Source of the DNA: a virus | Virus record (IMG/VR): IMGVR_UViG_3300031837_000019 | DNA: 48,984 bases | Reading direction: 5' to 3' (one strand) | Shown: positions 25,030 to 45,060 of the stretch, piece after piece | Layout: every line of letters begins with the position of its first letter | Position numbering within the stretch: position 1 is the stretch's first letter | Notes under the pieces: generated by a model | What the model was told of the DNA's origin: nothing | What the model saw: only the letters and a program-made list of their open reading frames with translations | The model's database searches: none | Translations under genes and position numbers: made by a program

Positions 25030-25361
25030 GTAATTTCTCGTACCTCCACAGCAGCCTCTCTGGCTATTCTCTTCATATGTGCTGTTCCTCGTCCGCCAGG
25101 AAAGGCTATAACTAGGTCGGGGTGTTCATGGTCCAACATTTGTTGATTACGAATAAGACCCGCTGCTTTACCATATAAATCCCAATTAGCAGGATAGATT
25201 TTTACCGGATTACCATATTGTTTAGCGTACTGAATCGCTAATGTGTCAGCACCTTTAGCAGCTCCACTAATTATAGTAAACCTTCCTTCAATTTGATTTA
25301 GAGTATCTTCGAGTTTAACATAATCATTAAAATCTCTACCACCACAGATTAGAATTTTCAA
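25026..25361 (-). CDS. SLOG/DUF2493-like Rossmann-fold protein
   Basis: ICGGRDF..ISGAAKGADTLA..GLIRNQQML..AFPGGRGTAHM pattern, recalled from DUF2493 (YspA-type) proteins. TTG start. Confidence 0.6.
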   Translation of the reverse strand: MKILICGGRDFNDYVKLEDTLNQIEGRFTIISGAAKGADTLAIQYAKQYGNPVKIYPANWDLYGKAAGLIRNQQMLDHEHPDLVIAFPGGRGTAHMKRIAREAAVEVREIT

Positions 25362-25522
25362 TCAATTAAATCCTCTAATTCGTCGATATCCTCTGAACGC
25401 TTCAAATGTATCACTCTTTGTCTGTATTTAGGTGAATGTAAATCACGAGCGATCTCATTCCTTTGATATTGACGTCTTGCTCGACGCTTCTCTTTTTCCT
25501 GGAACTTGTTCATCCCGGTCAT
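25358..25522 (-). CDS. small basic protein (54 aa, not in the ORF track)
   Basis: MTGMNKFQEKEKRRARRQYQRNEIARDLHSPKYRQRVIHLKRSEDIDELEDLID. Its stop overlaps the next start. More protein-like than the overlapping 70-aa track ORF. Confidence 0.5.
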   Translation of the reverse strand: MTGMNKFQEKEKRRARRQYQRNEIARDLHSPKYRQRVIHLKRSEDIDELEDLID

Positions 25523-25561
25523 GTTTAGTATCTTTCAGTGTTACCTCAATCTGATAAAGAA

Positions 25562-25587
25562 GGAGACTGAGATGTGCCTCAGTCTCC
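25562..25587 (-). terminator. intrinsic terminator-like hairpin inside the - arm
   Basis: Perfect 10-bp stem GGAGACTGAG/CTCAGTCTCC with a 6-nt loop, followed on the - strand by TTCTTTAT. Confidence 0.55.
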
Positions 25588-25608
25588 CTCAATACTTTAT
25601 CTACAGCT

Positions 25609-25986
25609 TTAAGCTGCTGTCTTAACTTCTTGGTTGATTTCGCCAAGTTTCCACACCTGAAGATCAAGAAATTCAGCTAAAGAGTGTTCAGTTCGAGCAC
25701 CCTTAGAAGCACTCCATCCTGGTAGAAGAGCAATGGTATCTGCTTCATTAATAATATACATTAGATCATCAGTAATTGCAAGTCTGCGATCAAAACCTTT
25801 AGCCTCAGCTTCTTTAAGATCACCAGTCTCTGATCGACTGTAGTCTTCACCATCCCGTTCAATATCACGACGAGCCGGGTTAAAGACAGTATGTCCATGA
25901 CCTTTAAGGTATTCTTCAGCGGCAAAGAATGCCGGGAAATTAAAATCTTTATACCCAGTCATAGGACCAGCTAGGTAGACTTTCAT
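25609..25986 (-). CDS. nucleoside 2-deoxyribosyltransferase-like protein (DUF4406-type)
   Basis: MKVYLAGPMTG..FNFPAF...A..L...GH.V.NP matches the DUF4406/NDT-like N-terminal pattern. Confidence 0.6.
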   Translation of the reverse strand: MKVYLAGPMTGYKDFNFPAFFAAEEYLKGHGHTVFNPARRDIERDGEDYSRSETGDLKEAEAKGFDRRLAITDDLMYIINEADTIALLPGWSASKGARTEHSLAEFLDLQVWKLGEINQEVKTAA

Positions 25987-26330
25987 TTTTGTCTCTCTGA
26001 ATTAGCGAGTATTAATTCAAATCTCGCGAGGGCGTTCCATGCAACGTGAGCAGCATGGGGAAGTCCAGAATCAAGGTCCACAATTTCTCCCGATGCTTCT
26101 GCTGCAAGGTGTCGTACCATTGCATCAGTGTATCTATTAAGTCCATCATCGACATATCGCCAACCGTCCCAGGCATATTTAGTTGCTCCGAAAGCTGAGA
26201 CGGAAGATACTCCAGAAATTGCTTTCGGGAAGTAGCCAAGCCCTCCGCGATAGATTGGAGCTTTTCCGGCGTCATCTTTCCGAGCCCCAGCAATACCTTC
26301 TGACGGGTCACCTGTAACCTCTCTACTCAA
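25983..26330 (-). CDS. DUF5664-type protein (possible dNTP pyrophosphohydrolase-like domain)
   Basis: KDDAGKAP..GATKY..WRY...Y.DAMVRHL..E..GE.VDLDSGLPHAAHVAWNALARFEL matches my recollection of the DUF5664 pattern; needs a profile check. Confidence 0.5.
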   Translation of the reverse strand: MSREVTGDPSEGIAGARKDDAGKAPIYRGGLGYFPKAISGVSSVSAFGATKYAWDGWRYVDDGLNRYTDAMVRHLAAEASGEIVDLDSGLPHAAHVAWNALARFELILANSERQK

Positions 26331-29658: not shown

Positions 29659-29686
29659 AGTATACCATACTAAATATTAGTGTCAA
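29659..29686 (-). promoter_or_regulatory. sigma70-type promoter candidate (TTGACA-16-TATACT) upstream of the tRNA-like gene
   Basis: On the - strand, TTGACA at 29686-29681, 16-nt spacer, TATACT at 29664-29659. The -35 element overlaps the stop of the polymerase C fragment. Confidence 0.45.
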
Positions 29687-30195
29687 TGACATTCTGCCCA
29701 ATTTGCTCCGCATTTGTAGCCACCTGTGAGTGGGACTTTAAATCCGATATCTGTTCCTGCAGTTTCAATGGCGTTAACACAGATTTTCCCAACTTCCTCA
29801 GAATCCTTGGTCGCTGCATCTAGTTGTCCTTCATCATGAATATTACCAACATAGAATCCATCAAGTCCTCGTCTCTTAATTTCATTTCTGGCAACAATAG
29901 CGGTCCTTTTCATAACTATTGCGCCGGCTGACTGGAGCTTATAGTTAAGCGCAGCGCTCTGGGCTGGGCAGCGAACGAAGCCTCCATCAATGGTTCGCAA
30001 CAGTCCGCCAGTTGCTCGAAACTCATCTTGGATATCTGCAGAGAGTCTGGAAAGTCCGGGAGTACCTCGCTCAAGGATTCCACGAGCCCATTTACCATAG
30101 TGTCTAGCTTCACTTCCTCGAAGTTCAGGGCGCAACGTGACTCCGAGCTTTGGATCGCCACCTCCATAGAGATACCATGTGTTTAACTGAGGTCG
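29683..30195 (-). CDS. polA: family A DNA polymerase, C-terminal fragment
   Basis: The frame is open from 30195. It encodes NTWYLYGGGDPKLG (rest of motif B, cf. T7 gp5 FLYGAGDEKIG) and VGNIHDEGQLD (motif C). The first canonical start is the TTG at 30135, downstream of motif B. Confidence 0.75.
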   Translation of the reverse strand, partial: RPQLNTWYLYGGGDPKLGVTLRPELRGSEARHYGKWARGILERGTPGLSRLSADIQDEFRATGGLLRTIDGGFVRCPAQSAALNYKLQSAGAIVMKRTAIVARNEIKRRGLDGFYVGNIHDEGQLDAATKDSEEVGKICVNAIETAGTDIGFKVPLTGGYKCGANWAECH

Positions 30196-30807
30196 TTAAT
30201 CTCAGCCCATATAGCTGCATGTCCCCATGCAGAGCAGACTATATCATCATCCGACTGTAGGGCCGGAGCTGGGCGCTTCCAGACACTTGTCTGTACTCTC
30301 TTTCGAGATAGTCGTTGCACCTTCTAGATATTCAATTGCCTTCTGGAGATTGCCTATATTGTCATCAAACAAACCTAATGCTTGATTACATTTAGGGCAC
30401 AGAAGTCCACGAATTAAACCAGTTAAATGATCATGGTCAATGGCTAATTTAGCCTTACCATTTCTGGCGACCACATATCCTTCAGAACCACATATCCTAC
30501 AATGTGGATCAGCAAACATATCTTCATACTGCTCTAAAGTAATACTATATGCTTTATGCAAATACCTTCTTGAGTATCTGCGTTCTGCACAAATATTAGA
30601 GCAGAATAAATGAGATGGTGCCACTGGTTGAAAATCTAAATCACATTCTCTGCACTTCTTAATCCTGAAAGAACCTTGGGGGTATTTATCAGGTGTTGCA
30701 GTAAAATGTTCTTGAGATTTATTCGTATTTTTGAATATCATGCTTGGCTCATGATTAGCTGTTCTAGCTTTCCCATGAGTTCACCCAGTTTTACTACTGC
30801 TACTTTA
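30196..30807 (-). mobile_element. homing-endonuclease insertion splitting the polymerase gene
   Basis: 612 nt between the two polymerase fragments, of which 495 nt are the Endo VII/HNH ORF. Confidence 0.55.
30247..30741 (-). CDS. HNH/Endonuclease VII-family homing endonuclease
   Basis: CRICGSEG......LAIDHDHLTGLIRGLLCPKCNQALGLFDDN is the Endonuclease_7-type HNH motif. Confidence 0.85.
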   Translation of the reverse strand: MIFKNTNKSQEHFTATPDKYPQGSFRIKKCRECDLDFQPVAPSHLFCSNICAERRYSRRYLHKAYSITLEQYEDMFADPHCRICGSEGYVVARNGKAKLAIDHDHLTGLIRGLLCPKCNQALGLFDDNIGNLQKAIEYLEGATTISKESTDKCLEAPSSGPTVG

Positions 30808-32142
30808 CTAACAGTAGAATCCGTTTTTAACGGTAAGATCACGCATTTCATCACTGAGGTTGAGGTTTCGAGTGTTAACGAGGTGGGGATCCCCAACAGT
30901 GAAGAGAATGGTGGCTTCAGGATTGTTAAGATATTCAGCAAACATACGCATTTCAAGGCCACTGGCATCATACCCAACTTCTCTTCGATTGGGTCGAGCT
31001 TGCCAAAGTCGTCTACATTCAATTCCATACCTGACCTTCTTCTTGGCCTTTGGGATATTCATAGTATTAGGGTTAAATCCAATCATACGTCTAGTAGATG
31101 CACCACATGTAAGAACCTGACCATGCATACAATGGTCATCATAGTTAACACAATTAAGCCAACCCTCGACCATTGTACTTCGGCCTTGTAAGACCAGCCA
31201 ATCCGCAAGGGCTTTGACTTCTACCTTACCTGAAATCTCAGCAAAAGATATTAATGCCTCTTCATCAACCTTTGGGAATCCCTTCTCGGTAAAGTTAAGT
31301 GGTTCCCACCCAAGATCTAGAAGACGATCAACTCGTTGTTTAGGTGATCCAAGATTAAAGTCTACCCAATCAAGGGTAGAATAGGTTCCGTCTCGGTTGT
31401 CTCGAACTTCGGGGTATTCTCTAAGATGTCGTAAATAGCTTGCAAATTCACTACCATCTTTTTTAGTTCGTCTTTCGTACGTTCTACTGACTTCCAATCG
31501 CCTTGGGAAAAGTTCGTGGATAGCGAATTCAGATTCAGATTGAACAGCCCTGAGGTAACCTGCGAGCGCCTGTGCTCCAGGGATATCAAAATACCATCCA
31601 TTTCTTTGTTGTTCATCTACAACTTCCCTGACTTCATGTTCGATCTGGCATGATAATTCACTGAAGCCTACCCTCCGCATACGTTGCCAAAGGGCTCGTG
31701 CAACTTTCTTACCAAGCTTTACATCTTGTTTACAGTAGGTCTCCATCTCAGGAGACCACTTAGACCAATCATTGAAGTCCCCTTTAGGGTCTCCAAGACG
31801 TATTCCCCAAGCCTCCAGAGAATGACCGCCGGAAAGCTTAGGATCATACAGGTAAGAAAGAACCAGAGTGTCAACAATATTTCGAGTACTTGCGGTACCG
31901 CCGACAAGACGACGTGTATGGGGTCCGTCATAGCTGACCGCATTATGTCCAACAAAATAGACTTCACTACCACGAAGACCATCAAAGAATCCTTTTATCT
32001 CGTCGTGACCACGAAAGGCCATGACCTCTTCTTGATCCATCCTGGAAGCACACAGAAGCCAGATACGTGACGGATATAGTGAGTCGGCTTCGATATCTAT
32101 ATACCAATACTTATGGTAATCTTCAGGTCTAGGTAGATACAA
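30808..32142 (-). CDS. polA: family A DNA polymerase, N-terminal fragment (3'-5' exo plus palm motif A)
   Basis: DIEAD (Exo I), VGHNAVSYDG (Exo II), YCKQDV (Exo III), SPKQRVDRLL, PNTMNIP, YDASGLEMRMFA (motif A). Ends RDLTVKNGFYC-stop inside motif B. Confidence 0.85.
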   Translation of the reverse strand: MYLPRPEDYHKYWYIDIEADSLYPSRIWLLCASRMDQEEVMAFRGHDEIKGFFDGLRGSEVYFVGHNAVSYDGPHTRRLVGGTASTRNIVDTLVLSYLYDPKLSGGHSLEAWGIRLGDPKGDFNDWSKWSPEMETYCKQDVKLGKKVARALWQRMRRVGFSELSCQIEHEVREVVDEQQRNGWYFDIPGAQALAGYLRAVQSESEFAIHELFPRRLEVSRTYERRTKKDGSEFASYLRHLREYPEVRDNRDGTYSTLDWVDFNLGSPKQRVDRLLDLGWEPLNFTEKGFPKVDEEALISFAEISGKVEVKALADWLVLQGRSTMVEGWLNCVNYDDHCMHGQVLTCGASTRRMIGFNPNTMNIPKAKKKVRYGIECRRLWQARPNRREVGYDASGLEMRMFAEYLNNPEATILFTVGDPHLVNTRNLNLSDEMRDLTVKNGFYC

Positions 32143-33702
32143 TTAATTCATAACCCATTCATGTCCGGCGACCTTACTGCCGCCAGAGCGATAAGAATTG
32201 ATCTCTTCTTCTGTAAGTTCGGTGAGACGCCCGGTGTCATTATTATAATGTAGGTATGCGCCCGGACCAGTACGACCGCAAAACCTGTTCTTCTCAACCA
32301 TAAGAGACACAACATTCCTTCTCCAAGGGTCTTCGGAGAGTTTTTCTCGGTTGAGTTTGATAACGATATTAGCTAGTTGTTCTACCCCGGCAGTGCCTCT
32401 GATCTCGCCCTTCCGGTTCTGGTGAATTACAGCGATAATGGAAATATTACATTCCATACATAATGTCTTTAATTTGGTAGCAATCTCATCAAGCTGTTTA
32501 CGCTCATCCCCTGATTGATCAGACACCACAATAGATAGGTGGTCCAGAATAATATACTTACAACCAAGATTATGCATGTATCGAACTTTGTTGAGGATTT
32601 CTTGAATTGAATTAGACCCAAAATGGTCATAAATAACGAGCTTGTCAGTATCGACGATGCTATCGAAATATCCTCTAAGTTCCTCTTGGTTGACCATCGC
32701 CCTAATGTCTGGAAGATGCAGAGGCATATTAGCCTCAATAGACATTAAACCGAGCGCAGTATCTCCGTTCGTTTCTTCCAAGTGTAGAAGCCCGATACCC
32801 GCTTCTGGCGATGTTTTTCTAATATGATATTCAATCTCTTTGAGGACAGACGTCTTACCCACACTGGTTTCGGCAGTGAAGACCACGAATTCTGAGAGCC
32901 GTATGCCATAAGTCTGAGAGTTAAGTGACTCCCAGGGATATGGTACTGTTTCATAGTTTTTTGGGGCGGAGACCTCCTCCCACAGTTCACGCCCGAGTTT
33001 AAGCCCTGACGGACTGTATTGCGGAGCCGCCCACCATTCACGGTTAAACTGCTCACGTTTGCCAACTTTAAGATAGTCGTTCGCATCTTTGGCTTCTGCA
33101 AGAGTAAGAACCTTGACCTTGCCGATGGGGAACATACCTGCCACAGTAAGAGCGGCTTCCTGGCCCGGATAGCGAACCTGACCTGTCTGGGCATTTAGTT
33201 TACCCTCATCTTTGTCAAAACAAACAACAATATTCTGGAAAGAATTGAGGTACTCGCTGTTCTCTGCAACATCCTTAGCAGCACCTGCTGCTCCAGACCT
33301 GACAGAGACGACTGGCCATCTCGAACCCATAAGCTCGTAAGCAGCAAGTGCGTCATATTCACCTTCGACGAGTGTAATGTATTTCGCACTTCCAGGAGGG
33401 AAGAGGTGGCTTCCGAAGAGCCCTGTGTGCTTAATATCACCTTCATTAAAGAACTGTTTGTCCGCAGTCCTGACCTTATTGGCAAGATGCTTTCCGTCTT
33501 CAAAATATGGGAAGTATGTATAATCACCTTCACGCCACACGCCATACTTCTCTGCGGTGGCCTTCATGATCTTCCTGTCGGTTAGATCAACAGTAATACG
33601 TTTAATGTCTGTAAGGATTGTCGTGTCCTTATTCTCATTATCGTTGTCTGGAAAAGTTGTTATGCCGCACACAAAACAGTGTGTGTGACCGTCGGAGTAC
33701 AA
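32143..33702 (-). CDS. T7 gp4-like primase-helicase
   Basis: SDGHTHCFVCG zinc motif, TOPRIM LVEGEYDALAAYE, Walker A TAETSVGKTS, ILDHLSIVVSD..DERK. The frame stays open upstream to 33786 and encodes the first CxxC (see findings). Confidence 0.9.
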   Translation of the reverse strand: MYSDGHTHCFVCGITTFPDNDNENKDTTILTDIKRITVDLTDRKIMKATAEKYGVWREGDYTYFPYFEDGKHLANKVRTADKQFFNEGDIKHTGLFGSHLFPPGSAKYITLVEGEYDALAAYELMGSRWPVVSVRSGAAGAAKDVAENSEYLNSFQNIVVCFDKDEGKLNAQTGQVRYPGQEAALTVAGMFPIGKVKVLTLAEAKDANDYLKVGKREQFNREWWAAPQYSPSGLKLGRELWEEVSAPKNYETVPYPWESLNSQTYGIRLSEFVVFTAETSVGKTSVLKEIEYHIRKTSPEAGIGLLHLEETNGDTALGLMSIEANMPLHLPDIRAMVNQEELRGYFDSIVDTDKLVIYDHFGSNSIQEILNKVRYMHNLGCKYIILDHLSIVVSDQSGDERKQLDEIATKLKTLCMECNISIIAVIHQNRKGEIRGTAGVEQLANIVIKLNREKLSEDPWRRNVVSLMVEKNRFCGRTGPGAYLHYNNDTGRLTELTEEEINSYRSGGSKVAGHEWVMN

Positions 33703-34844: not shown

Positions 34845-35327
34845 CTACTTCGCTCGGCTATCTCTTCCTCCCATTTGATTCATGGTTGATATGAGTATAC
34901 CCTCATTAAAATCTATGAGAATAAGATGTTTCTCCATGTCTTCTGGATGTTCGTAGTTATTTAGATCAGCCTGATATGGTTCATCATCTAGAATTAAATA
35001 GTGCGTTGTGTCGGGATGTTCTTTCAACCATTTGGCTACTCTTGTGTAACGCCAATTTTCGTTCTCATCACATATAGGATGTTCATGGAAATATTCTCTC
35101 TTGAGTCCTTCAATAATGCAATGCTCAAGAGTCTCGTTACTACCAATAGCCCGAATCCAGGAAGAATGTATAACAAGTTTCCAATTACGAACTAAACACC
35201 AATCATTAATAAGACCGACAGCAGCAGGGTCAAATTTCTTAACAAAAGGTTTGGTCTGCCCAGGCATAGCATATGCTCGATAAGGAATGAGAGGCCCGTC
35301 AATATCAAGAAATAGAATTTTAGTCAT
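34845..35327 (-). CDS. HAD-superfamily phosphatase-like protein
   Basis: MTKILFLDIDGPLIP contains the DxDG motif I of HAD hydrolases. Confidence 0.6.
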   Translation of the reverse strand: MTKILFLDIDGPLIPYRAYAMPGQTKPFVKKFDPAAVGLINDWCLVRNWKLVIHSSWIRAIGSNETLEHCIIEGLKREYFHEHPICDENENWRYTRVAKWLKEHPDTTHYLILDDEPYQADLNNYEHPEDMEKHLILIDFNEGILISTMNQMGGRDSRAK

Positions 35328-36003
35328 TTAAACCAAATGGGCGAAAAAGATTTGCATCAATAACTGCATCAACGATCATCGGACAATTTTTCTCCAGTAG
35401 ATAACCACAAGCAAATGCAATCTGTTGATGTTCTAACTGAGTTTCAGGACCTTGGCGAATAGATACATAATGTATCCAATCACGAAGAGTACCTTGCATA
35501 TACATACGAGTTGATGTCAGACCTTCAGGCAGAAGTTTACGGGCGAGCTCCTTAGCAATACCAACCGCAAGACATGCCTTATAGCCGGCCCAACAGATGC
35601 CCCAAACTTGATTCTGCCAGACTGACCACAAATCATTGATTTCAATGTCCGCAGTAGGGATGGAGTTCTGACGATTCTTCGGGTCTTTAAGTCTGGCTTG
35701 CGGCGACATTACCAGCTTCTCGTCCACTTCAGAATACCGCTGACTAAATTCTTGAAAGTGGAATGATCTGTGTCTCAAAATTTGACGAGCAATATCTCTT
35801 GTAGTCTCAATTTCAACGCACATACAGGCCATCTCAAATGGTGACCAATGATTATGATCAATTAAATACTTAATCAACTTTTCGGAAGGATCATCTGGTT
35901 TGGCAGACGGATTAGACACACGAGCCATGTGTGCCACCATCTTGTCGGCATCAGGCGTGATCCACTTAAGTTCGACTCTCAATCTGAAAACCTTAATGTA
36001 CAA
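35320..36003 (-). CDS. thyX: flavin-dependent thymidylate synthase
   Basis: ThyX signature RHRSFHFQEFS (RHR-x7-S) followed by QRY. Confidence 0.85.
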   Translation of the reverse strand: MYIKVFRLRVELKWITPDADKMVAHMARVSNPSAKPDDPSEKLIKYLIDHNHWSPFEMACMCVEIETTRDIARQILRHRSFHFQEFSQRYSEVDEKLVMSPQARLKDPKNRQNSIPTADIEINDLWSVWQNQVWGICWAGYKACLAVGIAKELARKLLPEGLTSTRMYMQGTLRDWIHYVSIRQGPETQLEHQQIAFACGYLLEKNCPMIVDAVIDANLFRPFGLND

Positions 36004-36685: not shown

Positions 36686-37075
36686 TTACTGGCCTGTTTC
36701 TACCATTGGGAAATTATCGTCTGCATACTCAAGCACAAATTGACGTTCTGGTAGAGTTTGAAGTGATGCACACATATTCATAAGTCGTTGCCTTACAGAC
36801 AACGGAACAGCATACGGATCAGGGAAAAACCCCACTACATTGTCACATCTAGTGAATAGTGCCGTTTTCTGAGCATCCGTCAAGCCGAAAGGTAGGATAT
36901 TATTCCTATCTTCCCACGGAAGAGTATCGTCTTTTAGCATATCTTTTTCAAAAATACCGTACACACCATAAAGTTTAGAACTAACATCATACCCATACTT
37001 ATTGATCAAGATTTGTTCTAGTACAAAAGGAAGATCATGTCTAAGTTTAAGTGTTCGCTTGATTGGATTAGGCAT
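36686..37075 (-). CDS. hypothetical protein
   Basis: The ATG at 37075 overlaps the ATP-grasp stop by 8 nt. The track start at 37204 lies inside the ATP-grasp gene. Confidence 0.5.
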   Translation of the reverse strand: MPNPIKRTLKLRHDLPFVLEQILINKYGYDVSSKLYGVYGIFEKDMLKDDTLPWEDRNNILPFGLTDAQKTALFTRCDNVVGFFPDPYAVPLSVRQRLMNMCASLQTLPERQFVLEYADDNFPMVETGQ

Positions 37076-37817
37076 TGGCAAGTGCTGTAAGGGCTGCGGC
37101 GTATGCAGGGACTGTTTCCCCTTCAATACCCGGTGCAGTATTGACTTCAAGGACATAGAAATTTCCCAACTTATCCTCAATGATGTCCACGGCCCCGAAG
37201 TCAAGTCCGAGCGCCCGAACGGCGTCTACCCCCAACTCATCCCGAGTTTCGTTGGGGGGAATATTCTTACGTTGATAAATAAATCCATTCTTCCAAGACC
37301 TGACCTTCCAATTGGTCGGCTCTCTTTTTGGGTCTCGAATCTTTCTATGAGTAGCGAATGCACCAAGACAAGTTGCATGAACTCTGAATTCTTTGTCTTT
37401 GAATATGTATTTAGTATACAATTTGGAATCTACAAGCTCATCACCCGGTTCCATTATAACGATACCAGCACCTTCATGACCTGTCAAGATCGTCCGAGCA
37501 ACTACTGTATCACCATTATCTAACCACTCTTGGGCTATAGCCTTATTCTCAGTCCAAGGAACAGTCTGAACTCCGGCATTAGTTAGATAGTGAAAGGTTT
37601 TTCGTTTATTAACAGCTTTATAGATTGCTTCACAAGAATTAATATGAATGTGATTAGGAAGGTGCGGCCAAGCCTTATCGTCACCAACGCCCCATGAGAT
37701 AACTACATCACCTTCTTCGACAAGCTTACCGAGACGCATACGACGGAACCCTTGTTCCTTAGACAAGAAGTAGGCACCTTCAGAGGGGCGGTTCCCAGAG
37801 AATACCCAGAGTGTCAT
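37068..37817 (-). CDS. ATP-grasp carboxylate-amine ligase (RimK-like)
   Basis: VVARTILTGHEGAGIVI, KEFRVH and GLDFGAVDII..FYVLEVNTAPG are typical ATP-grasp elements. The ATG at 37817 overlaps the upstream stop (ATGA). Confidence 0.75.
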   Translation of the reverse strand: MTLWVFSGNRPSEGAYFLSKEQGFRRMRLGKLVEEGDVVISWGVGDDKAWPHLPNHIHINSCEAIYKAVNKRKTFHYLTNAGVQTVPWTENKAIAQEWLDNGDTVVARTILTGHEGAGIVIMEPGDELVDSKLYTKYIFKDKEFRVHATCLGAFATHRKIRDPKREPTNWKVRSWKNGFIYQRKNIPPNETRDELGVDAVRALGLDFGAVDIIEDKLGNFYVLEVNTAPGIEGETVPAYAAALTALANA

Positions 37818-38698
37818 GAAGCTTCCTTCCATGTGGAGCAGAAGGCTAAATCTTGAGCATTCCGCATACCACGTTTGAGCATATTTTCATAGCCATCAAC
37901 AGTTAAATATTTACGAGACATAGGCCCTAGCACATCTTCTAGAAATCCTTTAGGGCCTGTTAGACTAAATTTACGAATAATTTCAGCCGGATTAGTATAA
38001 TTTCTTGCCCGTTCTTTCATTGTCTGAAGTGTCTTGATCCAATGAATAATACGTCCATAATGGATTGAACACTCCATTGCACGAAACTCAATTGATCCAT
38101 ACTTTAGTAGGCTAGCGAAGTTGACAGATGCATAACGATCATCAATCTCAATACCGAAGAAATTATTTCCATTCTGAATAGACCTAATAAGACCGACGGC
38201 AATACCGTAAGCGTCTGTCACTCTAAGACAGAAATTATTACCAATTCGATGATCTCCGGCTTGTGATGTTAGGAGTTCATCAAGAGTGATAGACAGGACC
38301 ATCATATTATATATGGTTCGGTAAGTCTCGTGGGCAAAGTTCAAATGCACATGAACTGAAGTACGGTATGAATCATACACAACAGCCGGGGGCGTTTTAA
38401 TAAAATCCAGGAGAATTGCTAGAGAAATCTCAATATTCTCAAATGTCATCGGATGTTTAGATACGTACTCTATACACTCATCTCCATGGCTGAGTGCTCT
38501 CAAAGAATTCTCAGGATGAACTACCCAATATCTGGATATATTGGCAGATTTCTTTGAGATATTCTGACCTTCAAGTTCAATCTCAACGCCGAATGCGTCA
38601 GCGTGATTTCTGGCCTCAGAGTGAATAGGGATTTGCTCAATAAGTTTCCTATTGAGTTGCATGGGAAGCGTGTACACCACTATTCTCCTCAATTGCAT
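37814..38698 (-). CDS. glutamine-synthetase-like amidoligase (Amidoligase_2-type)
   Basis: FGVEIELEG near the N-terminus, VHVHLNF, and GSIEFRAME near the C-terminus. The start could instead be 38662. Confidence 0.65.
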   Translation of the reverse strand: MQLRRIVVYTLPMQLNRKLIEQIPIHSEARNHADAFGVEIELEGQNISKKSANISRYWVVHPENSLRALSHGDECIEYVSKHPMTFENIEISLAILLDFIKTPPAVVYDSYRTSVHVHLNFAHETYRTIYNMMVLSITLDELLTSQAGDHRIGNNFCLRVTDAYGIAVGLIRSIQNGNNFFGIEIDDRYASVNFASLLKYGSIEFRAMECSIHYGRIIHWIKTLQTMKERARNYTNPAEIIRKFSLTGPKGFLEDVLGPMSRKYLTVDGYENMLKRGMRNAQDLAFCSTWKEAS

Positions 38699-39302
38699 CC
38701 GAAAGGTGTTCAGTTAAATAAGAATAGTTATCAACTAATTTAAAATCTTTCAAATTCTGTGTAAATCCGACGGGTTTTCCACGGTATTCTAGAGTAAAAT
38801 CACCGCGGATTGCATTAGGTTGCAACGCGAAATCTTTATGAAATGCAACTATCTTGCGTTTTTCAGTTCGTAATATCTCTTCTGCCGAGAGAATTGTCGG
38901 GTAACTATTAGAGAGCATCATAACTATCGATTTACTGAAAGTAAAATCATCATTAACATACCCACTATAATGAGAGTGCCAACTTAATTGATCTCTTCTC
39001 AAACCTTGTCGCCACTGACGCACAGCTCGACGATACCACCAAATTGCTGCTTCACTCGAATTAGCATATCCGATTGCGTAGTCTCGATAAGATAAGTTAG
39101 GATCATTATTTAAATCGATAGACTTAATACAACCAGTAATACCACTTACAACTAGATGATAGGTCCAGACTTCAGGATTCTCTTTTGACTGAACACAGCC
39201 ACAATCTTTAACGTACATAGGCACCCCATCATAATAGATGATGGTCGAAACAAACTTTGTATGGATATCGTTTAGGTTATCAAACTGACATCTAGCCGTC
39301 AT
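38649..39302 (-). CDS. hypothetical protein within the ligase operon
   Basis: 217 aa; TAATG coupling to the upstream gene; no motif recognised. Confidence 0.55.
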   Translation of the reverse strand: MTARCQFDNLNDIHTKFVSTIIYYDGVPMYVKDCGCVQSKENPEVWTYHLVVSGITGCIKSIDLNNDPNLSYRDYAIGYANSSEAAIWWYRRAVRQWRQGLRRDQLSWHSHYSGYVNDDFTFSKSIVMMLSNSYPTILSAEEILRTEKRKIVAFHKDFALQPNAIRGDFTLEYRGKPVGFTQNLKDFKLVDNYSYLTEHLSDAIEENSGVHASHATQ

Positions 39303-40129
39303 TAAGCCACCTTCGGTAGTGGCTCCAAGCCGAGATCATAGTAGATCACGCTTTCAGGCCAATTTGTTTCGTTATTGTCTATAATACTACGAGCAAGATC
39401 ACCATAGAAATCTTCTGCCCAATTATCTGAGAAAGCGTCTGCCATTGCGCATTGCACAGAGTTATAAATCCATCGCATCAGCGGTTCTGAGTCGAGCCAT
39501 TTGTTTGAGAGCACACGATATTCGATGCCATACGGCTTTGGTCGGAAGGCCCCTGCTCGTCCGTAGAGTTTACGCCGTATGCTGTCCCTATCCCAAAGAA
39601 CAGAATATACACCGATATAATGATCAAGTTGCCTAGCAATACGGCAGGCATATATGAAGGTTTCTTTGTCTTCAATGTCGAGGTCATTCGACCATCCTAT
39701 ATGTATATGCCCTGCAGCGGTCCTGAATGGCTCACCACCGGGGTTTGGTCTTGGGTTGATATCCATGGTCCATGCATTAAAGTCTGGCATACAGCCCAGC
39801 TCCTGGGCGTAAGACGGGACCTCCCATCTGAAATACCCTGCATCATACCGGGCCACTGGCTCCGCTACAACATTATAACCGGGGACCATCTCTGTGAGTG
39901 TCTTACGGACAGACGTGATATTACGTACGAACTCGTCAATCGTTGACGCTGGATCGATATTAAACTCAAGAGCAGTTCCATCAACTTGAACCGCCCCATT
40001 TAGGACCTTATAAGGTTTAGCCTTAGTCCCCGGAATGCGGCCGTGGGCAGACACAAAAGACCCATTATCTGGGTCTCTCATAAACAGTTCAGGATCAGCC
40101 CCAATGAGGACTGTGTTCTTGATATTCAT
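39302..40129 (-). CDS. phage-type COOH-NH2 ligase (GCS2-like, phiEco32-like family)
   Basis: N-terminal IGADPELFM, later AAGHIHIGW, matching my recollection of the phage COOH-NH2 ligase type 2 family. Confidence 0.6.
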   Translation of the reverse strand: MNIKNTVLIGADPELFMRDPDNGSFVSAHGRIPGTKAKPYKVLNGAVQVDGTALEFNIDPASTIDEFVRNITSVRKTLTEMVPGYNVVAEPVARYDAGYFRWEVPSYAQELGCMPDFNAWTMDINPRPNPGGEPFRTAAGHIHIGWSNDLDIEDKETFIYACRIARQLDHYIGVYSVLWDRDSIRRKLYGRAGAFRPKPYGIEYRVLSNKWLDSEPLMRWIYNSVQCAMADAFSDNWAEDFYGDLARSIIDNNETNWPESVIYYDLGLEPLPKVA

Positions 40130-41254
40130 TTAGACTCCATAGGCGGCTATTTCGTAGATTTCCTGAGTGTCATAACAGTCGCCACAAATGAACGGGGTGT
40201 GATAACCATGATAAGGCCCAATGACATAAATGAGATCACCCCAAACGATGTCCGTTTTATTGCAGAACGCACACCCTTCAGCAACCATCGGGGTAAACTT
40301 CTTCTTGTTGATAACGAAGCCTTTGTTATCTTTGTACGGGGCTCGAAATCGTCCCTCACGATAGGGCCTATCACTAAACGGAACTGGATCGTTGATCTTA
40401 AAATTAGCAGTAGAGGCCGTATTCTGCGTTCCAGTCACGAGCTTCTTTTGAAAATTGTTCGACGATCCTTTCTTCAAATTTGAAGAAGAATGGCCTTCGT
40501 AAACCCAGGTGTACTTACCCTCTATCTTCTCCTGACCCGGAAAGTCAAACTTATCCGATATCATGGCGGGGATAGTCCAGCTATAGTGGGTGTCTTCCGT
40601 AACACTAAAAATAAGGTCCTCACCTTCTTTGTCTTTAACAATATCCTTGTCATTGCGATCAAGGATATATTTCATAAGGCCCATTTCAGAAGACCAAATA
40701 AGTGTGCTTCGATCTTTAGAGTATGTATAGTATAGTGGTCTACGATCATTGCGTATGAAATTTATCGTATTATTACGACGATCATACCAAGTCAAAGCCC
40801 AAGCGCCCATAAGACTCTCAATCGTATCTTTGACAGATCGTTCATTCAGTGTCGCAATAATCGCTTCAGAATCGGTACCGAACCTATCAGAATGGTGTAG
40901 GTCAGCTAAGCACCACTTTTCTAGTGTCCCATTGTGTGCGCCAACGATATGTTCAAACTGAAACGGGTGCGCATTGGCTTCTGTCTTCTCACCAACTGTG
41001 GCAAAACGATTATGACCAATAATAACCTTAGGTGGCACAGTGGATTTATCCATCGCATCCTCAAAATCTTTTTCAGCTAACAGAATAAAGGGATGTCCTG
41101 GTTTTTTAATTACTTTGAAACTAGAATCATATCGACTAACAAAAGCTGCGCCAGTAGCATGTGGACCTCTAACCACATCAAAAATAAGCAATTCTTGAAA
41201 TACGTCTTTCCATTTGCCAGTTGTATCGCCGGCAATCCCAACTAAGCCGCACAA
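40130..41254 (-). CDS. class II (Ntn) glutamine amidotransferase with C-terminal zinc ribbon
   Basis: MCGLVGIAG places the nucleophile Cys at position 2. GHNRFAT, AHPF. C-terminal CAFC..CGDC. Confidence 0.75.
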   Translation of the reverse strand: MCGLVGIAGDTTGKWKDVFQELLIFDVVRGPHATGAAFVSRYDSSFKVIKKPGHPFILLAEKDFEDAMDKSTVPPKVIIGHNRFATVGEKTEANAHPFQFEHIVGAHNGTLEKWCLADLHHSDRFGTDSEAIIATLNERSVKDTIESLMGAWALTWYDRRNNTINFIRNDRRPLYYTYSKDRSTLIWSSEMGLMKYILDRNDKDIVKDKEGEDLIFSVTEDTHYSWTIPAMISDKFDFPGQEKIEGKYTWVYEGHSSSNLKKGSSNNFQKKLVTGTQNTASTANFKINDPVPFSDRPYREGRFRAPYKDNKGFVINKKKFTPMVAEGCAFCNKTDIVWGDLIYVIGPYHGYHTPFICGDCYDTQEIYEIAAYGV

Positions 41255-41898
41255 AGGTTAGTAATCTCGGCAAGATACTGAACCATCAGACCAATACAAT
41301 AGCTGGCAAAAGCAGTATTAGGGACGTATTCAGGGTGCCCTTGGATACAAAGGCTGTGTGTATTAGGGTAGTAAACAATTTCAATATCATCCTTGATCTT
41401 CCCTCGAATTTCGGCATATTCACACCGCTTAAGTGTTGACTCATTAGCAATAGCAAGAATGATGGCATCTTTACCGGGTATCATCATTTGATGATGCGTC
41501 GATGTGCATTTCATGATCACTCCCATTTCTAGGACTGTCATGTCGTGATCATGTTCATGATTGTTAACATCTTGCCAGAGAGAGCCGCCATTTAAACAAT
41601 TAAGAAGCTGAGCTCCCCGACAAATACCCACCTTCAACTTAGGTGCATCACGAACACTATTAAAAATATCAATCTCTAATTTATCCCGTATACTTGGCAT
41701 TTTTTGATGTGTATAGATAGGGTTCTCATTATAAATAGATGTAGCAATGTCTTCACCGCCATTAAAAACAATAATATCTACTTCTAACAAATTCTCAGGA
41801 TTAACATTAATCATACCCTCATTTTGGAGGAGATGAGCCATAGACCCACCATAATCTCCATCGTATATAGAACAAAAGGTAGTTTGTTTATTGACCAT
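41242..41898 (-). CDS. class I glutamine amidotransferase / peptidase C26-like (gamma-glutamyl hydrolase type)
   Basis: GICRGAQLLN (nucleophile elbow) and IQGHPEY (His-x-Glu). Confidence 0.75.
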   Translation of the reverse strand: MVNKQTTFCSIYDGDYGGSMAHLLQNEGMINVNPENLLEVDIIVFNGGEDIATSIYNENPIYTHQKMPSIRDKLEIDIFNSVRDAPKLKVGICRGAQLLNCLNGGSLWQDVNNHEHDHDMTVLEMGVIMKCTSTHHQMMIPGKDAIILAIANESTLKRCEYAEIRGKIKDDIEIVYYPNTHSLCIQGHPEYVPNTAFASYCIGLMVQYLAEITNLCAA

Positions 41899-42769
41899 TA
41901 ATCAATGCCTCGTACATTATGAATTGTTGTTGAAGTACCTGGGGGATATCTGCTTGAGGCATAAATTCATCACCGATATTTGCAAAAACCACCGGTTCTG
42001 CTGGCGCAATATCTATCAGCTTATCACCTTTATTACGTCTTGTACGGCTAGGCGCGATGACCTGAGAAGTTTTCTCAACACCATAGAAATAGATAATCTC
42101 TTCATCAGTCATCTCTATCATAAATTTATTGTTCCTACGACCCCAGATAATATTACATGGGGTACATCCTGACGGATCAATTTTAAAGGAGTCAGAAGAT
42201 GAACAGACTTCACCTCTCAAAATACTTAACCAATCAGATGTCGTATCAAACCAGAGGTGCTCTCCTATCTCTTCAACATTATGTAAATAAGACAAAAGAA
42301 AAGCCATTGTTGGCCCTACTCCAGATTTAACTAGGCGGTCCCATTCAAAAAGAAGTATTCTATGCTCAATTGGAACCCTAGTTGCGATACAATAATTGTA
42401 CAAAACATTTGCAGGCCATTTATCAAGATCAGAACAATGGATGAAATATTGACCATCAATACTCTCTATTGATATAAGGTCTGACCAGCCCTTAAATGGT
42501 CCAGAAATCAGCATACGTTGGTATGCAACATCAATGGGCTTTTTATTAGGCATAGCAGTTATCAGGTGATCAAACCCACTATCTAAATCGACCATATCAG
42601 AATGGCATACTCTTAGAGTTTTCAGATGAATGTCGAGGCAGTCCTCCGTCCATACCACCCAAGATGATGGGGTATTATTATCAATAGAACAATAACTATT
42701 AAAAAGTTCTGGGAGATATTTATCAACGATACAATCAGAGATTTTATTTTTCAGTATTTCTTGTACCAA
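41888..42769 (-). CDS. hypothetical protein, first gene of the ligase operon
   Basis: 293 aa; TTG start with AAGAAGG upstream; no motif recognised. Confidence 0.55.
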   Translation of the reverse strand: MVQEILKNKISDCIVDKYLPELFNSYCSIDNNTPSSWVVWTEDCLDIHLKTLRVCHSDMVDLDSGFDHLITAMPNKKPIDVAYQRMLISGPFKGWSDLISIESIDGQYFIHCSDLDKWPANVLYNYCIATRVPIEHRILLFEWDRLVKSGVGPTMAFLLSYLHNVEEIGEHLWFDTTSDWLSILRGEVCSSSDSFKIDPSGCTPCNIIWGRRNNKFMIEMTDEEIIYFYGVEKTSQVIAPSRTRRNKGDKLIDIAPAEPVVFANIGDEFMPQADIPQVLQQQFIMYEALINGQ

Positions 42770-42883
42770 TGTTGACCTTCTTTAATGGAGTTAAACTCAA
42801 CATTAAAGGAAACATATATATATATAAACTATATATTATATTATATATTAATATATACCCTCCTTAAGGGCCTCCTAAGAGAT

Positions 42884-42911
42884 ATTATATCTTATATTTT
42901 TGGTCTGTCAA
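42884..42911 (-). promoter_or_regulatory. consensus sigma70 promoter (TTGACA-16-TATAAT) for the ligase operon
   Basis: On the - strand, TTGACA at 42911-42906, 16-nt spacer, TATAAT at 42889-42884. An AT-rich leader follows. Confidence 0.7.
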
Positions 42912-43339
42912 GCAGCAACGACAGAGAATTCCTCCGGATTTTCGTCAAAGGACATCCAAGTCTTAGATTCGTCACGTACAAAGAACCCCTGTGTCATCCC
43001 ACGAGGTGCACATTCACCAATCTTGAAGAATCCCGCGTCTTTGATAGCTTCCATGATCTTCTTGGAATGTAGTTGATCATAGTTGAGTGTCAAAAACGTT
43101 AAACTGGGGTTGATGCGTTCTCCAGCATATACTTGAAAATCGGGGATAGGCCCCTGATTTTGATCACAAATTTGTGAAATCTGTGAGGTCAACTCTTCTT
43201 GCGTAAGCATTTTAACATTTTTAAAACCAGAGATAATCGATGCCCCGCAGCATAGTGGCCATAACTGACGTCGCATCTCATCGGGGAAGTTACCGAGCTT
43301 AAATGTCTGTTCAAACTCTTTCGGTAGATCAGTCTTCAT
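42908..43339 (-). CDS. hypothetical protein
   Basis: 143-aa ORF with AGGAA upstream. Confidence 0.55.
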   Translation of the reverse strand: MKTDLPKEFEQTFKLGNFPDEMRRQLWPLCCGASIISGFKNVKMLTQEELTSQISQICDQNQGPIPDFQVYAGERINPSLTFLTLNYDQLHSKKIMEAIKDAGFFKIGECAPRGMTQGFFVRDESKTWMSFDENPEEFSVVAA

Positions 43340-43913: not shown

Positions 43914-43946
43914 TGATCAATCTCCTTTCTGTGGTGTTATTACTAT

Positions 43947-44792
43947 TTAAGACATGAAAATTTTAAGGAATATTTCTTTCTGAGCAGTCTCTTCAGCAGA
44001 CCTAGCAGCAGATTCAGCGCCATACCTAGCAGACCAATTAACAGACTCAGCAGCAGACCTAGCAGACCAAGCAGCAGACTCAGCAGCAAACCTAGCAGCC
44101 TCAGTAGCACACCTAGCAGACCAAGCAGCACACCTAGCAGACCCAGCAGCAGACTCAGCAGCCTGAGCAGCACACCTAGCAGACCAAGCAGCAGACTCAG
44201 CAGCATACCTAGCAGACCTAGCAGCAGACCTAGCAGCAGACCTAGCAGCAGACCTAGCAGACTCAGCAGCAGTCTCAGCAGCAGACATAGCAGACCTAGC
44301 AGCAGACCTAGCAGCAGACTCAGCAGCAGACTCAGCAGCAGACTCAGCAGCAGACTCAGCAGCAGACCTAGTAGCAAACCTAGCAGACCTAGCAGACTCA
44401 GCAGCATACCTAGCAGACCTAGCAGCAGACTCAGCAGCAGTCTCAGCAGCAGACATAGCAGCAGACCCAGCAGCAGACCCAGCAGCAAACAAAGCAAACT
44501 CAGAAGCAGCCCTATCGGCTGTAATATCAAGCCAATTTTGAGTCGCATCCAGGGCGACTTTTACTCTTTGGTCTGTATTATGGTGCTGAACACGTTGAGA
44601 ACACAGAAGAGCAAACTGAACACATTCACATTTCATACTTAAACGTCCGGCTACCCACAGAAGATCTGGTATTAAAACACCGAATTCTATAGCCTGTTTG
44701 GCGTTTAAATATTTACGACGCCCGAAGTTAGGAATTTTAGCTAATGAACAAGGCTCTAGGGCGACGATCTCTTCATATGTTAGCTTAATCAT
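43947..44792 (-). CDS. Ala/Ser repeat protein with helical N-terminal domain
   Basis: The ATG at 44792 is preceded by GAGGGG. The N-domain (LLWVAGRL..CVQFALLCSQRVQHHNTDQRVKVALDATQNWL) is followed by about 170 aa of SAA(E/R/W)/SAR repeats. Confidence 0.65.
   Translation of the reverse strand: MIKLTYEEIVALEPCSLAKIPNFGRRKYLNAKQAIEFGVLIPDLLWVAGRLSMKCECVQFALLCSQRVQHHNTDQRVKVALDATQNWLDITADRAASEFALFAAGSAAGSAAMSAAETAAESAARSARYAAESARSARFATRSAAESAAESAAESAAESAARSAARSAMSAAETAAESARSAARSAARSAARSARYAAESAAWSARCAAQAAESAAGSARCAAWSARCATEAARFAAESAAWSARSAAESVNWSARYGAESAARSAEETAQKEIFLKIFMS
43990..44510. repeat. imperfect in-frame tandem repeats (9-, 12- and 15-nt units)
   Basis: For example, four perfect copies of gcagcagactca at 44311-44358; many agcagacct and agcagcagacct variants. 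Confidence 0.9.
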
Positions 44793-45060
44793 GATTATTA
44801 CCCCTCTGATGAATTTTAGAGAGCAGTTTAAGGACATGCTCAGGTCAGAGGCTCATTTACTTAAGCAGAGCAGCGATATTAGCAGACACACGACGAGCAT
44901 CTGTGGATTCATCTTGATGTTCTCCGATCTGAAGATTCAAGTTAGCCACTACATCCGTCTTACGTTGCGCCTCATAAAAATGATGCTCAGCAACAGCATT
45001 GAGCTTATGTGGGGCTACCAAAAAGAAAGAGGCGAATACGCTTGAGTAGTTCCAGCATGA

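Follow-up and report, generated by a model that had tools for sequence, protein, structure and literature searches.

A divergent copy of the phiEco32/LUZ24/PA11-type amidoligase cassette on an uncultured 49-kb podophage

The virus record IMGVR_UViG_3300031837_000019 of the IMG/VR collection (48,984 nucleotides; the whole stretch is referred to as the window) carries a run of seven open reading frames (ORFs) on its minus strand between positions 37,068 and 42,769, which we numbered g1 to g7 in transcription order. An earlier, sequence-only reading had proposed that these ORFs form an AT-rich operon encoding the stepwise assembly of an amide-linked product. All seven ORFs it delineated are indeed present, and by its sequence the locus is a further divergent copy of the known phiEco32/LUZ24/PA11-type amidoligase cassette, carried here by an uncultured 49-kb podophage. 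The cassette is predicted to encode five catalytically intact enzymes (g2, g3, g4, g6 and g7), while g1 and g5 are, from comparison of related loci, strictly co-conserved phage-specific proteins. The AT-richness was called in the right direction but is only modest, with a GC content of 0.411 in the cassette region versus 0.451 in the whole window.

In transcription order, the cassette starts with g1 (41,888–42,769; 293 aa from a TTG start), the conserved first cassette gene, followed by g2 (41,242–41,898; 218 aa), a protein of Peptidase C26/gamma-glutamyl hydrolase type with a class I amidotransferase fold, and g3 (40,130–41,254; 374 aa, again from a TTG start), a class II (Ntn) glutamine amidotransferase whose product begins MCGLVGIAG. 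Next come g4 (39,302–40,129; 275 aa), a phiEco32-type COOH-NH2 ligase of type 2, g5 (38,649–39,302; 217 aa), a phage-only protein modelled with two barrels, g6 (37,814–38,698; 294 aa), a glutamine-synthetase-like Amidoligase_2 protein, and g7 (37,068–37,832; 254 aa), a RimK-family ATP-grasp ligase. The junction sequences bear out the stop/start overlaps and the abutment that had been described: g1 and g2 share 11 nt (ATGGTCAATAA), g2 and g3 share 13 nt with the TTG start of g3 lying inside g2, g3 and g4 abut directly (TAAATG), and g4 and g5 share a single base (TAATG). The overlap of g5 and g6 had been missed; it spans 14 or 50 nt depending on the start used, a possible alternative start of g6 being located at position 38,662. 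The junction of g6 and g7 is an ATGA overlap if g7 starts at 37,817, with a GGAAGGA Shine-Dalgarno-like sequence upstream, and this is the likely start, giving a product of 249 aa.

Also missed was a possible eighth coupled gene (36,686–37,075, minus strand; about 129 aa), the ATG of which overlaps the stop codon of g7 by 8 nt. This ORF has no Pfam or PHROG match, and its homologues occupy the same position in 11 related loci. Its overlap with g7 suggests that transcription probably extends beyond g7 in the direction of thyX and the replication genes, and no terminator-like site was found on the minus strand between g7 and thyX.

At the nucleotide level, the window showed no similarity to GenBank phages. 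At the protein level, a tblastn search with g4 revealed relatives in 319 GenBank phage records (121 from Pseudomonas and 94 from Escherichia, with Vibrio, Aeromonas, Proteus and others also represented), and relatives of g4 were found in at least 488 IMG/VR stretches. The best 80 of these at least 488 stretches were combined with reference phages into a comparison of 85 loci. The commonest gene order among them was 1-2-3-4-5-6-7, found exactly in 35 loci and in another 11 with a gamma-glutamyl cyclotransferase (GGCT) gene at either end. Altogether, GGCT was present in 19 of the 85 loci, its carriers including LUZ24, phiEco32, CW02 and T5S1, and no tblastn or hidden Markov model (HMM) match to a GGCT (AIG2) gene was obtained anywhere in the window. 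A primase/helicase adjoins the cassette in 80 related loci and a family A DNA polymerase in 74. When 185,579 species genomes were searched for the g4-type ligase, the resulting 40 loci were mostly metagenome-assembled contigs, many of them of phage-genome size (about 42–57 kb), which argues that the cassette is phage-restricted; cellular (non-phage) operons carrying it were rejected as a candidate on the same grounds.

The survey of gene neighbourhoods that the sequence-only reading had called for recovered an orthologous cassette in PA11/TC6, CW02, LUZ24 and phiEco32. By tblastn, six of the seven window products match cassette genes of TC6, T5S1 and CW02. Matches in LUZ24 and phiEco32 were obtained for the enzyme genes, and the g5 counterparts of these two phages were reached by profile search. 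The closest likeness is to the Zobellviridae-type podophages (PA11/TC6, Salinivibrio CW02, Citrobacter CVT22 and the oyster-virome phage T5S1), which carry the same seven families in the same order, likewise upstream of a primase/helicase and a family A DNA polymerase; the best match of g4 in each of them is 44–52% identical. Unlike these cassettes, that of the window lacks small inserted ORFs and GGCT. The LUZ24-type (Bruynoghevirus) and phiEco32-type (Kuravirus, the PF14395 prototype) cassettes share with the window the COOH-NH2 ligase, the Y protein (g5), the Amidoligase_2 protein, the RimK-like ATP-grasp protein, and an Ntn amidotransferase with C-terminal CxxC pairs, all within an early operon just upstream of the primase/helicase. 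They differ from it in having the order 4-5-6-3-7-GGCT, in lacking the class I/C26 protein and in possessing GGCT, while the 300–400 aa proteins encoded upstream of them (gp14/15 and phi32_87/88) show no detectable sequence homology to g1.

The assignment of the five enzymes to their families, as well as the protein motifs quoted in support of it, held up against Pfam and PHROG profiles, and conservation of the catalytic residues was scored over 58–96 homologues from related loci. The best conserved gene of the cassette, g4, matches Pfam PF14395 (36.1 bits, cut-off 25) and phrog_3815 (E = 5e-77), and its product is 40–52% identical to those of PA11/TC6, CW02 and LUZ24 and about 32% identical to that of phiEco32. 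Its residues D12, E14, E55, H141, H143, E203 and R205 are 99–100% conserved across 86 sequences. The g6 product matches Pfam PF12224 (44.8 bits, cut-off 22) and phrog_7469 (E = 2e-58), with E39, E41, E43, H116, H118, E204 and R206 invariant across 82 sequences. No solved-structure relative of either g4 or g6 could be detected by sequence or profile. The COOH-NH2 ligase and Amidoligase_2 families were both reportedly placed by Iyer in 2009 within the glutamine-synthetase/GCS-like superfamily, and because g4 and g6 would share this superfamily the cassette ligases represent two folds; the earlier count of three unrelated ligase folds was therefore an overstatement.

The third ligase, g7, matches phrog_2599 (E = 3e-66), while its best Pfam matches fall just short of their thresholds (RimK at 19.4 bits for a cut-off of 21, and Dala_Dala_lig_C likewise just under its own). 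In NCBIfam its best matches are to alpha-L-glutamate ligases: MptN and the RimK family lead, CofF and LysX rank lower, and S6-glutamate ligase is also among them. Among PDB sequences it matches D-Ala-D-Ala ligase and RimK over a region that spans the Mg-binding D216...E229-x-N231 motif, and these three residues are conserved in its homologues.

For g2, the Pfam match to Peptidase_C26 (59.3 bits, cut-off 20.5) clearly exceeds that to GATase PF00117, which at 17.5 bits remains under its cut-off of 22.8; g2 also matches phrog_7218 (E = 6e-32) and, weakly, the NCBIfam model of gamma-glutamyl-CDP-amidate hydrolase. Among solved structures, Lin1909 and the plant gamma-glutamyl peptidase GGP1 come nearest to it, and its triad C93-H188-E190 is conserved in 100% of 73 homologues. 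By sequence, g2 is thus closest to the gamma-glutamyl peptidases and hydrolases, and it may strip gamma-glutamyl groups rather than supply ammonia. Since g2 passes only the Peptidase_C26 threshold and, among characterised proteins, most resembles gamma-glutamyl peptidases and hydrolases, a role of g2 as ammonia donor, and with it the earlier claim of two glutamine-derived ammonia donors, is not established.

The g3 product is identified by Pfam GATase_6 (72.3 bits) and phrog_4736 (E = 3e-67). Its alignment with GlmS spans the HNRxAT...HNG motif, with R83 and N108-G109 aligning directly with residues that bind free glutamine in GlmS, and with D128 (within the motif T-D-S-E) being presumably the equivalent of GlmS D123. 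The nucleophile is Cys2. An Ntn domain is followed by a linker and a C-terminal motif of four cysteines (C328, C331, C357 and C360), presumed to be a zinc ribbon, without a fused synthase domain; C2, R83, N108, G109, D128 and the four cysteines are 97–100% conserved in 58 homologues, and two CxxC motifs near the C-terminus occur in 82 of the 85 family members. The window's copy is short (374 aa, against a family median of 437), and no informative Pfam domain fusions were found in the longer homologues.

The two remaining proteins had been reported as lacking an annotated function, and this was upheld. No Pfam, PHROG or NCBIfam match was obtained for g1, for which 47 metagenomic homologues were found. 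Iterated HMMs, however, place g1 in one family with TC6_056 and T5S1 ORF21, the first cassette gene in PA11-type phages: the 60 g1-profile matches are all contained in the 69 loci matched by the TC6_056 profile, which recovers the window protein with E = 1e-15. The family as a whole has the signature [AS]-x-R131-x3-E135, and C55-H56, H171 and D175 are conserved within the near clade. The structure models that had been proposed for both proteins gave a confident AlphaFold2 model of g1 (pLDDT 88), to which no solved structure is similar in fold (best E 0.03, TM <0.25). Its matches in BFVD are uncharacterised phage proteins only, from CW02, CVT22, Cronobacter GAP52, Aeromonas LAh phages and Proteus 3H10_20, and at the level of models those in GAP52, Proteus 3H10_20 and Aeromonas LAh show only that the predicted g1 fold extends beyond Zobellviridae-type phages.

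Within its family, g1 of the window belongs to a divergent subclade, the nearest members of which have acidic C-terminal tails that the window copy lacks. In these homologues a long, Pro/Gln-rich disordered linker leads into a strongly acidic tail that often ends in Asp-Phe, resembling the acidic tails of T7 gp2.5 and gp4. No informative Pfam domains were found in the long homologues, and the idea that the acidic ...DDF tails serve as a carrier arm or ligase substrate was rejected, because they occur in only 7 of the 69 members and not in the window.

The phage-only g5 product matches phrog_11055 (E = 3e-24) and is homologous to TC6_050, CW02 gp8, LUZ24 gp17 and phi32_85. In 5 of 5 reference phages its gene lies between the two glutamine-synthetase-fold ligase genes, and across 82 loci an ORF of this family is found at a median distance of about 0.8 kb downstream of the g4 start. 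Clustered at 50% identity, the family numbers 433 clusters in a set of 1.84 billion proteins; among the clusters listed, nearly all are stand-alone proteins of about 180–220 aa, and no informative domain fusions were detected in the homologues. In the AlphaFold2 model (pLDDT 72.6), a flexible loop with pLDDT below 50 connects two small beta-barrel domains, and it is this loop that carries the sole strong family motif (R-x2-3-[RK]-x-G); only G78, R91 and G100 are near-invariant. The protein is probably non-catalytic, acting as an adaptor, a specificity subunit or a substrate.

Foldseek searches with the g5 model returned almost exclusively EF-P/eIF5A proteins as top matches, and these were weak (E >=4e-3, TM 0.2–0.37). 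Homology of g5 to EF-P/eIF5A was rejected at the sequence level, which leaves a weak likeness in fold: the family profile had 0 matches among PDB sequences, and hhalign assigned a probability of 0.45%. No EF-P Pfam family was among the top families listed for 90 g5 members, and the loop position corresponding to EF-P Lys34 is, as judged by eye, not conserved. A Pup-like tag was likewise rejected for g5, which is folded and has no conserved C-terminus, while g4 and g6 are assigned to families of the superfamily other than PafA/Dop.

Transcription of the cassette most likely starts from the consensus TTGACA-16 nt-TATAAT promoter that had been noted on the minus strand (42,884–42,911). Read directly from the sequence, this sigma-70 consensus is the sole 12/12 match within 34–46 kb, and its –35 box shares bases with the stop codon of the ORF upstream (42,908–43,339). 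In each of the seven closest metagenomic relatives, gene 1 is likewise preceded by a site that scores at least 11/12 and keeps the 16-nt spacer, at a distance of 130–156 nt in six of them and of 78 nt in the seventh. As only 5 of 369 random control windows reach a score of at least 11/12, conservation of the promoter exceeds what chance would produce. In LUZ24, a sigma-70 promoter is annotated upstream of the cassette as well, and the proteomics table of phage SU10 lists ATP-grasp, amidotransferase and YtfP/UPF0131-family (GGCT-like) proteins as early gene products (PMC4281155). The host sigma-70 RNA polymerase would then transcribe the cassette early, within the arm leading to the replication genes.

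Between promoter and g1 lies a 5′ leader of about 110 nt (42,770–42,883, minus strand), in which the –10 box is followed by two AGGAGG Shine-Dalgarno-like elements within a short palindrome, a long (TA)n-rich tract and a GAAGG ribosome-binding site. Alignment with the relatives showed that the 3′ part of the leader is conserved, and that palindromes at the same place differ by lineage; this palindrome could be an operator or a structure in the 5′ untranslated region. No Rfam match was found in the leader, and the idea that it holds a riboswitch or another known RNA was therefore rejected.

The cassette itself is already published and is not a previously unrecognised operon. The link drawn in the sequence-only reading to related phage neighbourhoods noted by Iyer, Aravind and colleagues in 2009 proved right, and, in line with its statement that it knew of no demonstrated substrate or product, no experimentally shown product was found in the full-text-searchable literature. 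Seven genes of RIO-1, PA11, CW02, LUZ24 and phiEco32-type phages have been described as a "peptidoglycan modification cassette", a label derived from comparative genomics only (PMC5498523, PMC11945000), and the cassette is also described in PMC10580990. Later papers either repeat the cell-wall or superinfection idea or interpret the genes as belonging to nitrogen metabolism, without giving a substrate or product (PMC11945000, PMC10580990, PMC10945688, PMC11706807).

An amide-bond pathway, as proposed earlier, remains the natural reading of these genes. Our own interpretation, to which we give slightly better than even credence, is that of a phage-restricted early cassette for glutamate or gamma-glutamyl ligation, amidation and trimming on a cytoplasmic acceptor other than DNA. 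The three ligases (g4, g6 and g7) would use ATP to form acyl-phosphates. In this way a cytoplasmic acceptor with amino and carboxyl groups would receive units of the glutamate or gamma-glutamyl type, or else ammonia that g3 frees from glutamine. Subsequently, g2 may trim or remove gamma-glutamyl groups, aided in many relatives by the cyclotransferase, so that the overall logic would be that of a phage-encoded "gamma-glutamyl cycle" or transient-handle pathway. In this scheme g5, and possibly g1, would be non-catalytic specificity or scaffold subunits or else the acceptor itself. The likeliest acceptors are peptides, proteins and small amines or peptide-like metabolites, rather than DNA.

Family membership points to a glutamate- or gamma-glutamyl-centred chemistry. 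Firstly, glutamine or gamma-glutamyl amides whose alpha groups are free serve as substrates in the families of g2, g3 and the GGCT of the relatives. Secondly, the characterised members of the g4/g6 superfamily activate a glutamate-type carboxylate as acyl-phosphate. Thirdly, g7 belongs to the alpha-L-glutamate ligase family. The proposed mode of action resembles that of gamma-glutamyl handle pathways (PuuA/PuuD in polyamine, EgtA/EgtC in ergothioneine and BtrJ/BtrG in butirosin metabolism, and the glutathione cycle), in which a ligase of the glutamine-synthetase/GCS fold or the ATP-grasp type makes a gamma-glutamyl amide that is later removed by a C26 hydrolase, an Ntn amidohydrolase or GGCT. 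This likeness is one of mode and not of membership, since g4 and g6 fall in separate families and no window protein reaches the curated thresholds of the handle families.

Several points weigh against the glutamate-centred interpretation. To our knowledge, no member of PF14395 or PF12224 has a known substrate or product, and since neither family has a detectable solved structure, the chemistry attributed to g4 and g6 derives from superfamily membership. Moreover, it is just as possible that g2 and g3 do supply ammonia for the amidation of carboxylates, and g1 may be an enzyme of a novel kind, which would change the scheme. As the window has no GGCT, removal of gamma-glutamyl groups by cyclisation is not essential to the pathway. 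Finally, the cassette consistently lies beside replication and nucleotide genes, which keeps a nucleotide- or nucleic-acid-linked role possible.

With respect to the acceptor, a peptidoglycan precursor, a protein and a small metabolite appear about equally probable, each being a tentative choice, and DNA ranks low. If peptidoglycan is the target, a reading that we hold only tentatively, stem-peptide precursors would be rebuilt or modified (amidation included) at linkages of the gamma-D-Glu, mDAP or D-Ala-D-Ala type, the purpose being a block of superinfection, recycling of the cell wall or preparation of the wall for lysis. This hypothesis is reportedly due to Iyer in 2009 and Hardies in 2013. 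It fits with the D-Ala-D-Ala ligases among the best PDB sequence matches of g7, with the cytoplasmic appearance of all cassette proteins (the cytoplasm being the site of precursor synthesis), and with the known amidotransferase-ligase precedents that amidate precursors, MurT/GatD and AsnB/LtsA. It is also the reading stated in the literature (PMC5498523, PMC11945000, PMC10580990), but there comparative genomics is its sole basis and the searchable papers contain no muropeptide data. Furthermore, no Mur-ligase, transpeptidase or peptidoglycan-binding domain occurs among the cassette proteins, and the family matches of g7 favour L-glutamate ligases over D-Ala-D-Ala ligase. The g3 enzyme is predicted to bind glutamine whose alpha groups are free, and GGCT depends on a free alpha-amino group, one that the D-iGlu of stem peptides does not have. 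Nor is it evident how a strictly lytic phage, its cycle being short, would benefit from such a modification.

Tagging of a protein or peptide deserves a similar, limited degree of belief. Here, the ligases would put glutamate, a gamma-glutamyl group or a short peptide on a host or phage protein, with g5 as adaptor or acceptor; ribosomal protein S6 or a translation or transcription factor are examples of host targets, and RimK-S6, LysX-LysW and PafA/Dop-Pup are analogues. In common with these systems, the cassette has glutamine-synthetase-fold or RimK-type ligases that would act on a protein partner, with a small partner gene between ligase genes. The membership of g7 in the RimK/LysX family is consistent with this, and the position of g5 between two such ligases recalls that of pup between dop and pafA. 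Further in favour are the non-catalytic appearance of g5, with its signature motif in a flexible loop, the fact that its weak fold neighbours are almost all EF-P/eIF5A proteins, which are themselves post-translationally modified, and the ability of GGCT-type enzymes to cleave gamma-glutamyl-lysine. On the other hand, g5 differs from Pup and LysW in size, disorder and C-terminal sequence: its family has no invariant Lys or Glu that could be the acceptor residue and no conserved C-terminus. The likeness to EF-P comes without sequence support and with low TM-scores, and the acidic tails of g1 homologues are restricted to 7 of 69 family members and missing from the window copy.

About as tentatively, the cassette may serve auxiliary metabolism, boosting the nitrogen, glutamine or glutathione-like metabolism of the host by making or recycling a free gamma-glutamyl compound or by detoxifying amines such as polyamines. 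The same set of amidotransferase, amidoligase, "glutathione synthase" and GGCT genes has been read as nitrogen-metabolism genes (eLife 2024; PMC10945688). The combination of GCS-fold and ATP-grasp ligases, GGCT and a gamma-glutamyl peptidase moreover mirrors the gamma-glutamyl cycle and the PuuA/PuuD pathway. Counting against a metabolic role, the families are phage-restricted instead of being copies of host genes, plain metabolism does not readily account for two phage-specific non-enzymatic partners, and g7 has no match to glutathione synthetase families.

A more specific form of protein modification, which we regard as doubtful, would be a dedicated machine in which g5 is either the acceptor of a new post-translational modification derived from glutamate or gamma-glutamyl or an adaptor steering the three ligases to a component of host translation or transcription, with g1 supplying a hitherto unseen enzymatic or scaffolding fold.

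Hypermodification of DNA, in which a base or nucleotide precursor would receive an amino-acid-derived side chain in order to evade restriction, had been listed among the open options and is, in our assessment, very improbable. It is suggested by the constant position of the cassette beside primase/helicase and nucleotide-metabolism genes, by the presumed zinc ribbon of g3, which could bind nucleic acid, by a general likeness to the thymidine hypermodification clusters of ViI, M6, phiW-14 and SP10 (multi-enzyme and early or replication-linked), and by amidoligase and amidotransferase genes near thymidine-hypermodification genes in viromes, as described by Lee et al. (PMC8989533). Unlike those clusters, however, the minus-strand genes that were scanned, to which the plus-strand arm (1–22 kb) does not belong, include no dUMP/dCMP hydroxymethylase or other source of 5-hydroxymethyldeoxyuridine (5-hmdU), no 5-hmdU kinase (5-HMUDK), and no aGPT-Pplase, DpdA, TET/JBP or glycosyltransferase, and the thyX of the window makes ordinary dTMP. 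Because the DNA of cassette-bearing phages is in addition cut by ordinary restriction enzymes (that of U17 virions by 11 of 16 enzymes, PMC11945000; that of phage tf by RsaI, HpaI, EcoRV, SmaI and HaeIII, besides being cloned and Sanger-sequenced, PMC3517423), DNA was ranked low as a target.

Of the multi-enzyme modules of virulent podophages that lack a known product, this cassette is among the most widespread, and its carriers include genera used in phage therapy (Bruynoghevirus, Kuravirus and Paundecimvirus). It has borne a "cell-wall modification" label, of comparative-genomic origin only, since 2009. Given that it holds two enzyme families without a characterised member and two partner proteins without known fold or function, its solution would probably reveal both new amide-ligase chemistry and a new host-takeover strategy. 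The window itself adds one more divergent copy together with comparative details, and leaves the question no more testable than in cultured phages. New here are the identification of g1 as the conserved first gene of the cassette, the two-barrel model and phage-only status of g5, the conserved four-cysteine C-terminus of g3, the affinity of g2 to gamma-glutamyl peptidases, and the essentially phage-restricted distribution of the cassette.

As noted in the sequence-only reading, the operon lies near thyX and other nucleotide enzymes. Downstream of the cassette, thyX (35,320–36,003) is followed along the early arm by the primase/helicase (32,143–33,702) and the family A DNA polymerase (30,808–32,142). 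The polymerase is split over two minus-strand ORFs (30,808–32,142 and 29,683–30,135) that flank an endonuclease VII/HNH-type ORF (30,247–30,741), an arrangement suggestive of a homing-endonuclease insertion. At its end (23,131–26,330, minus strand), the replication arm holds a nucleotide-metabolism set made up of a ribonucleotide reductase of 632 aa, a nucleoside 2-deoxyribosyltransferase-like/MazG-like protein (25,609–25,986, minus strand) and a dATP/dGTP pyrophosphohydrolase-like protein (25,983–26,330, minus strand).

On the other side, the ORF directly upstream of the cassette promoter (42,908–43,339, minus strand; 143 aa) is conserved in 9 related loci and has only a sub-threshold Pfam match, to an NAD glycohydrolase catalytic domain (E 0.002). 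Further upstream, an ORF of 296 aa (43,947–44,837, minus strand) with a weak match to phrog_18326, a family of unknown function, consists mostly of degenerate Ser/Ala/Arg/Glu repeats (…SAAESAARSA…), and these repeats give rise to a Leu-rich ORF (43,943–44,548) in another frame of the same strand.

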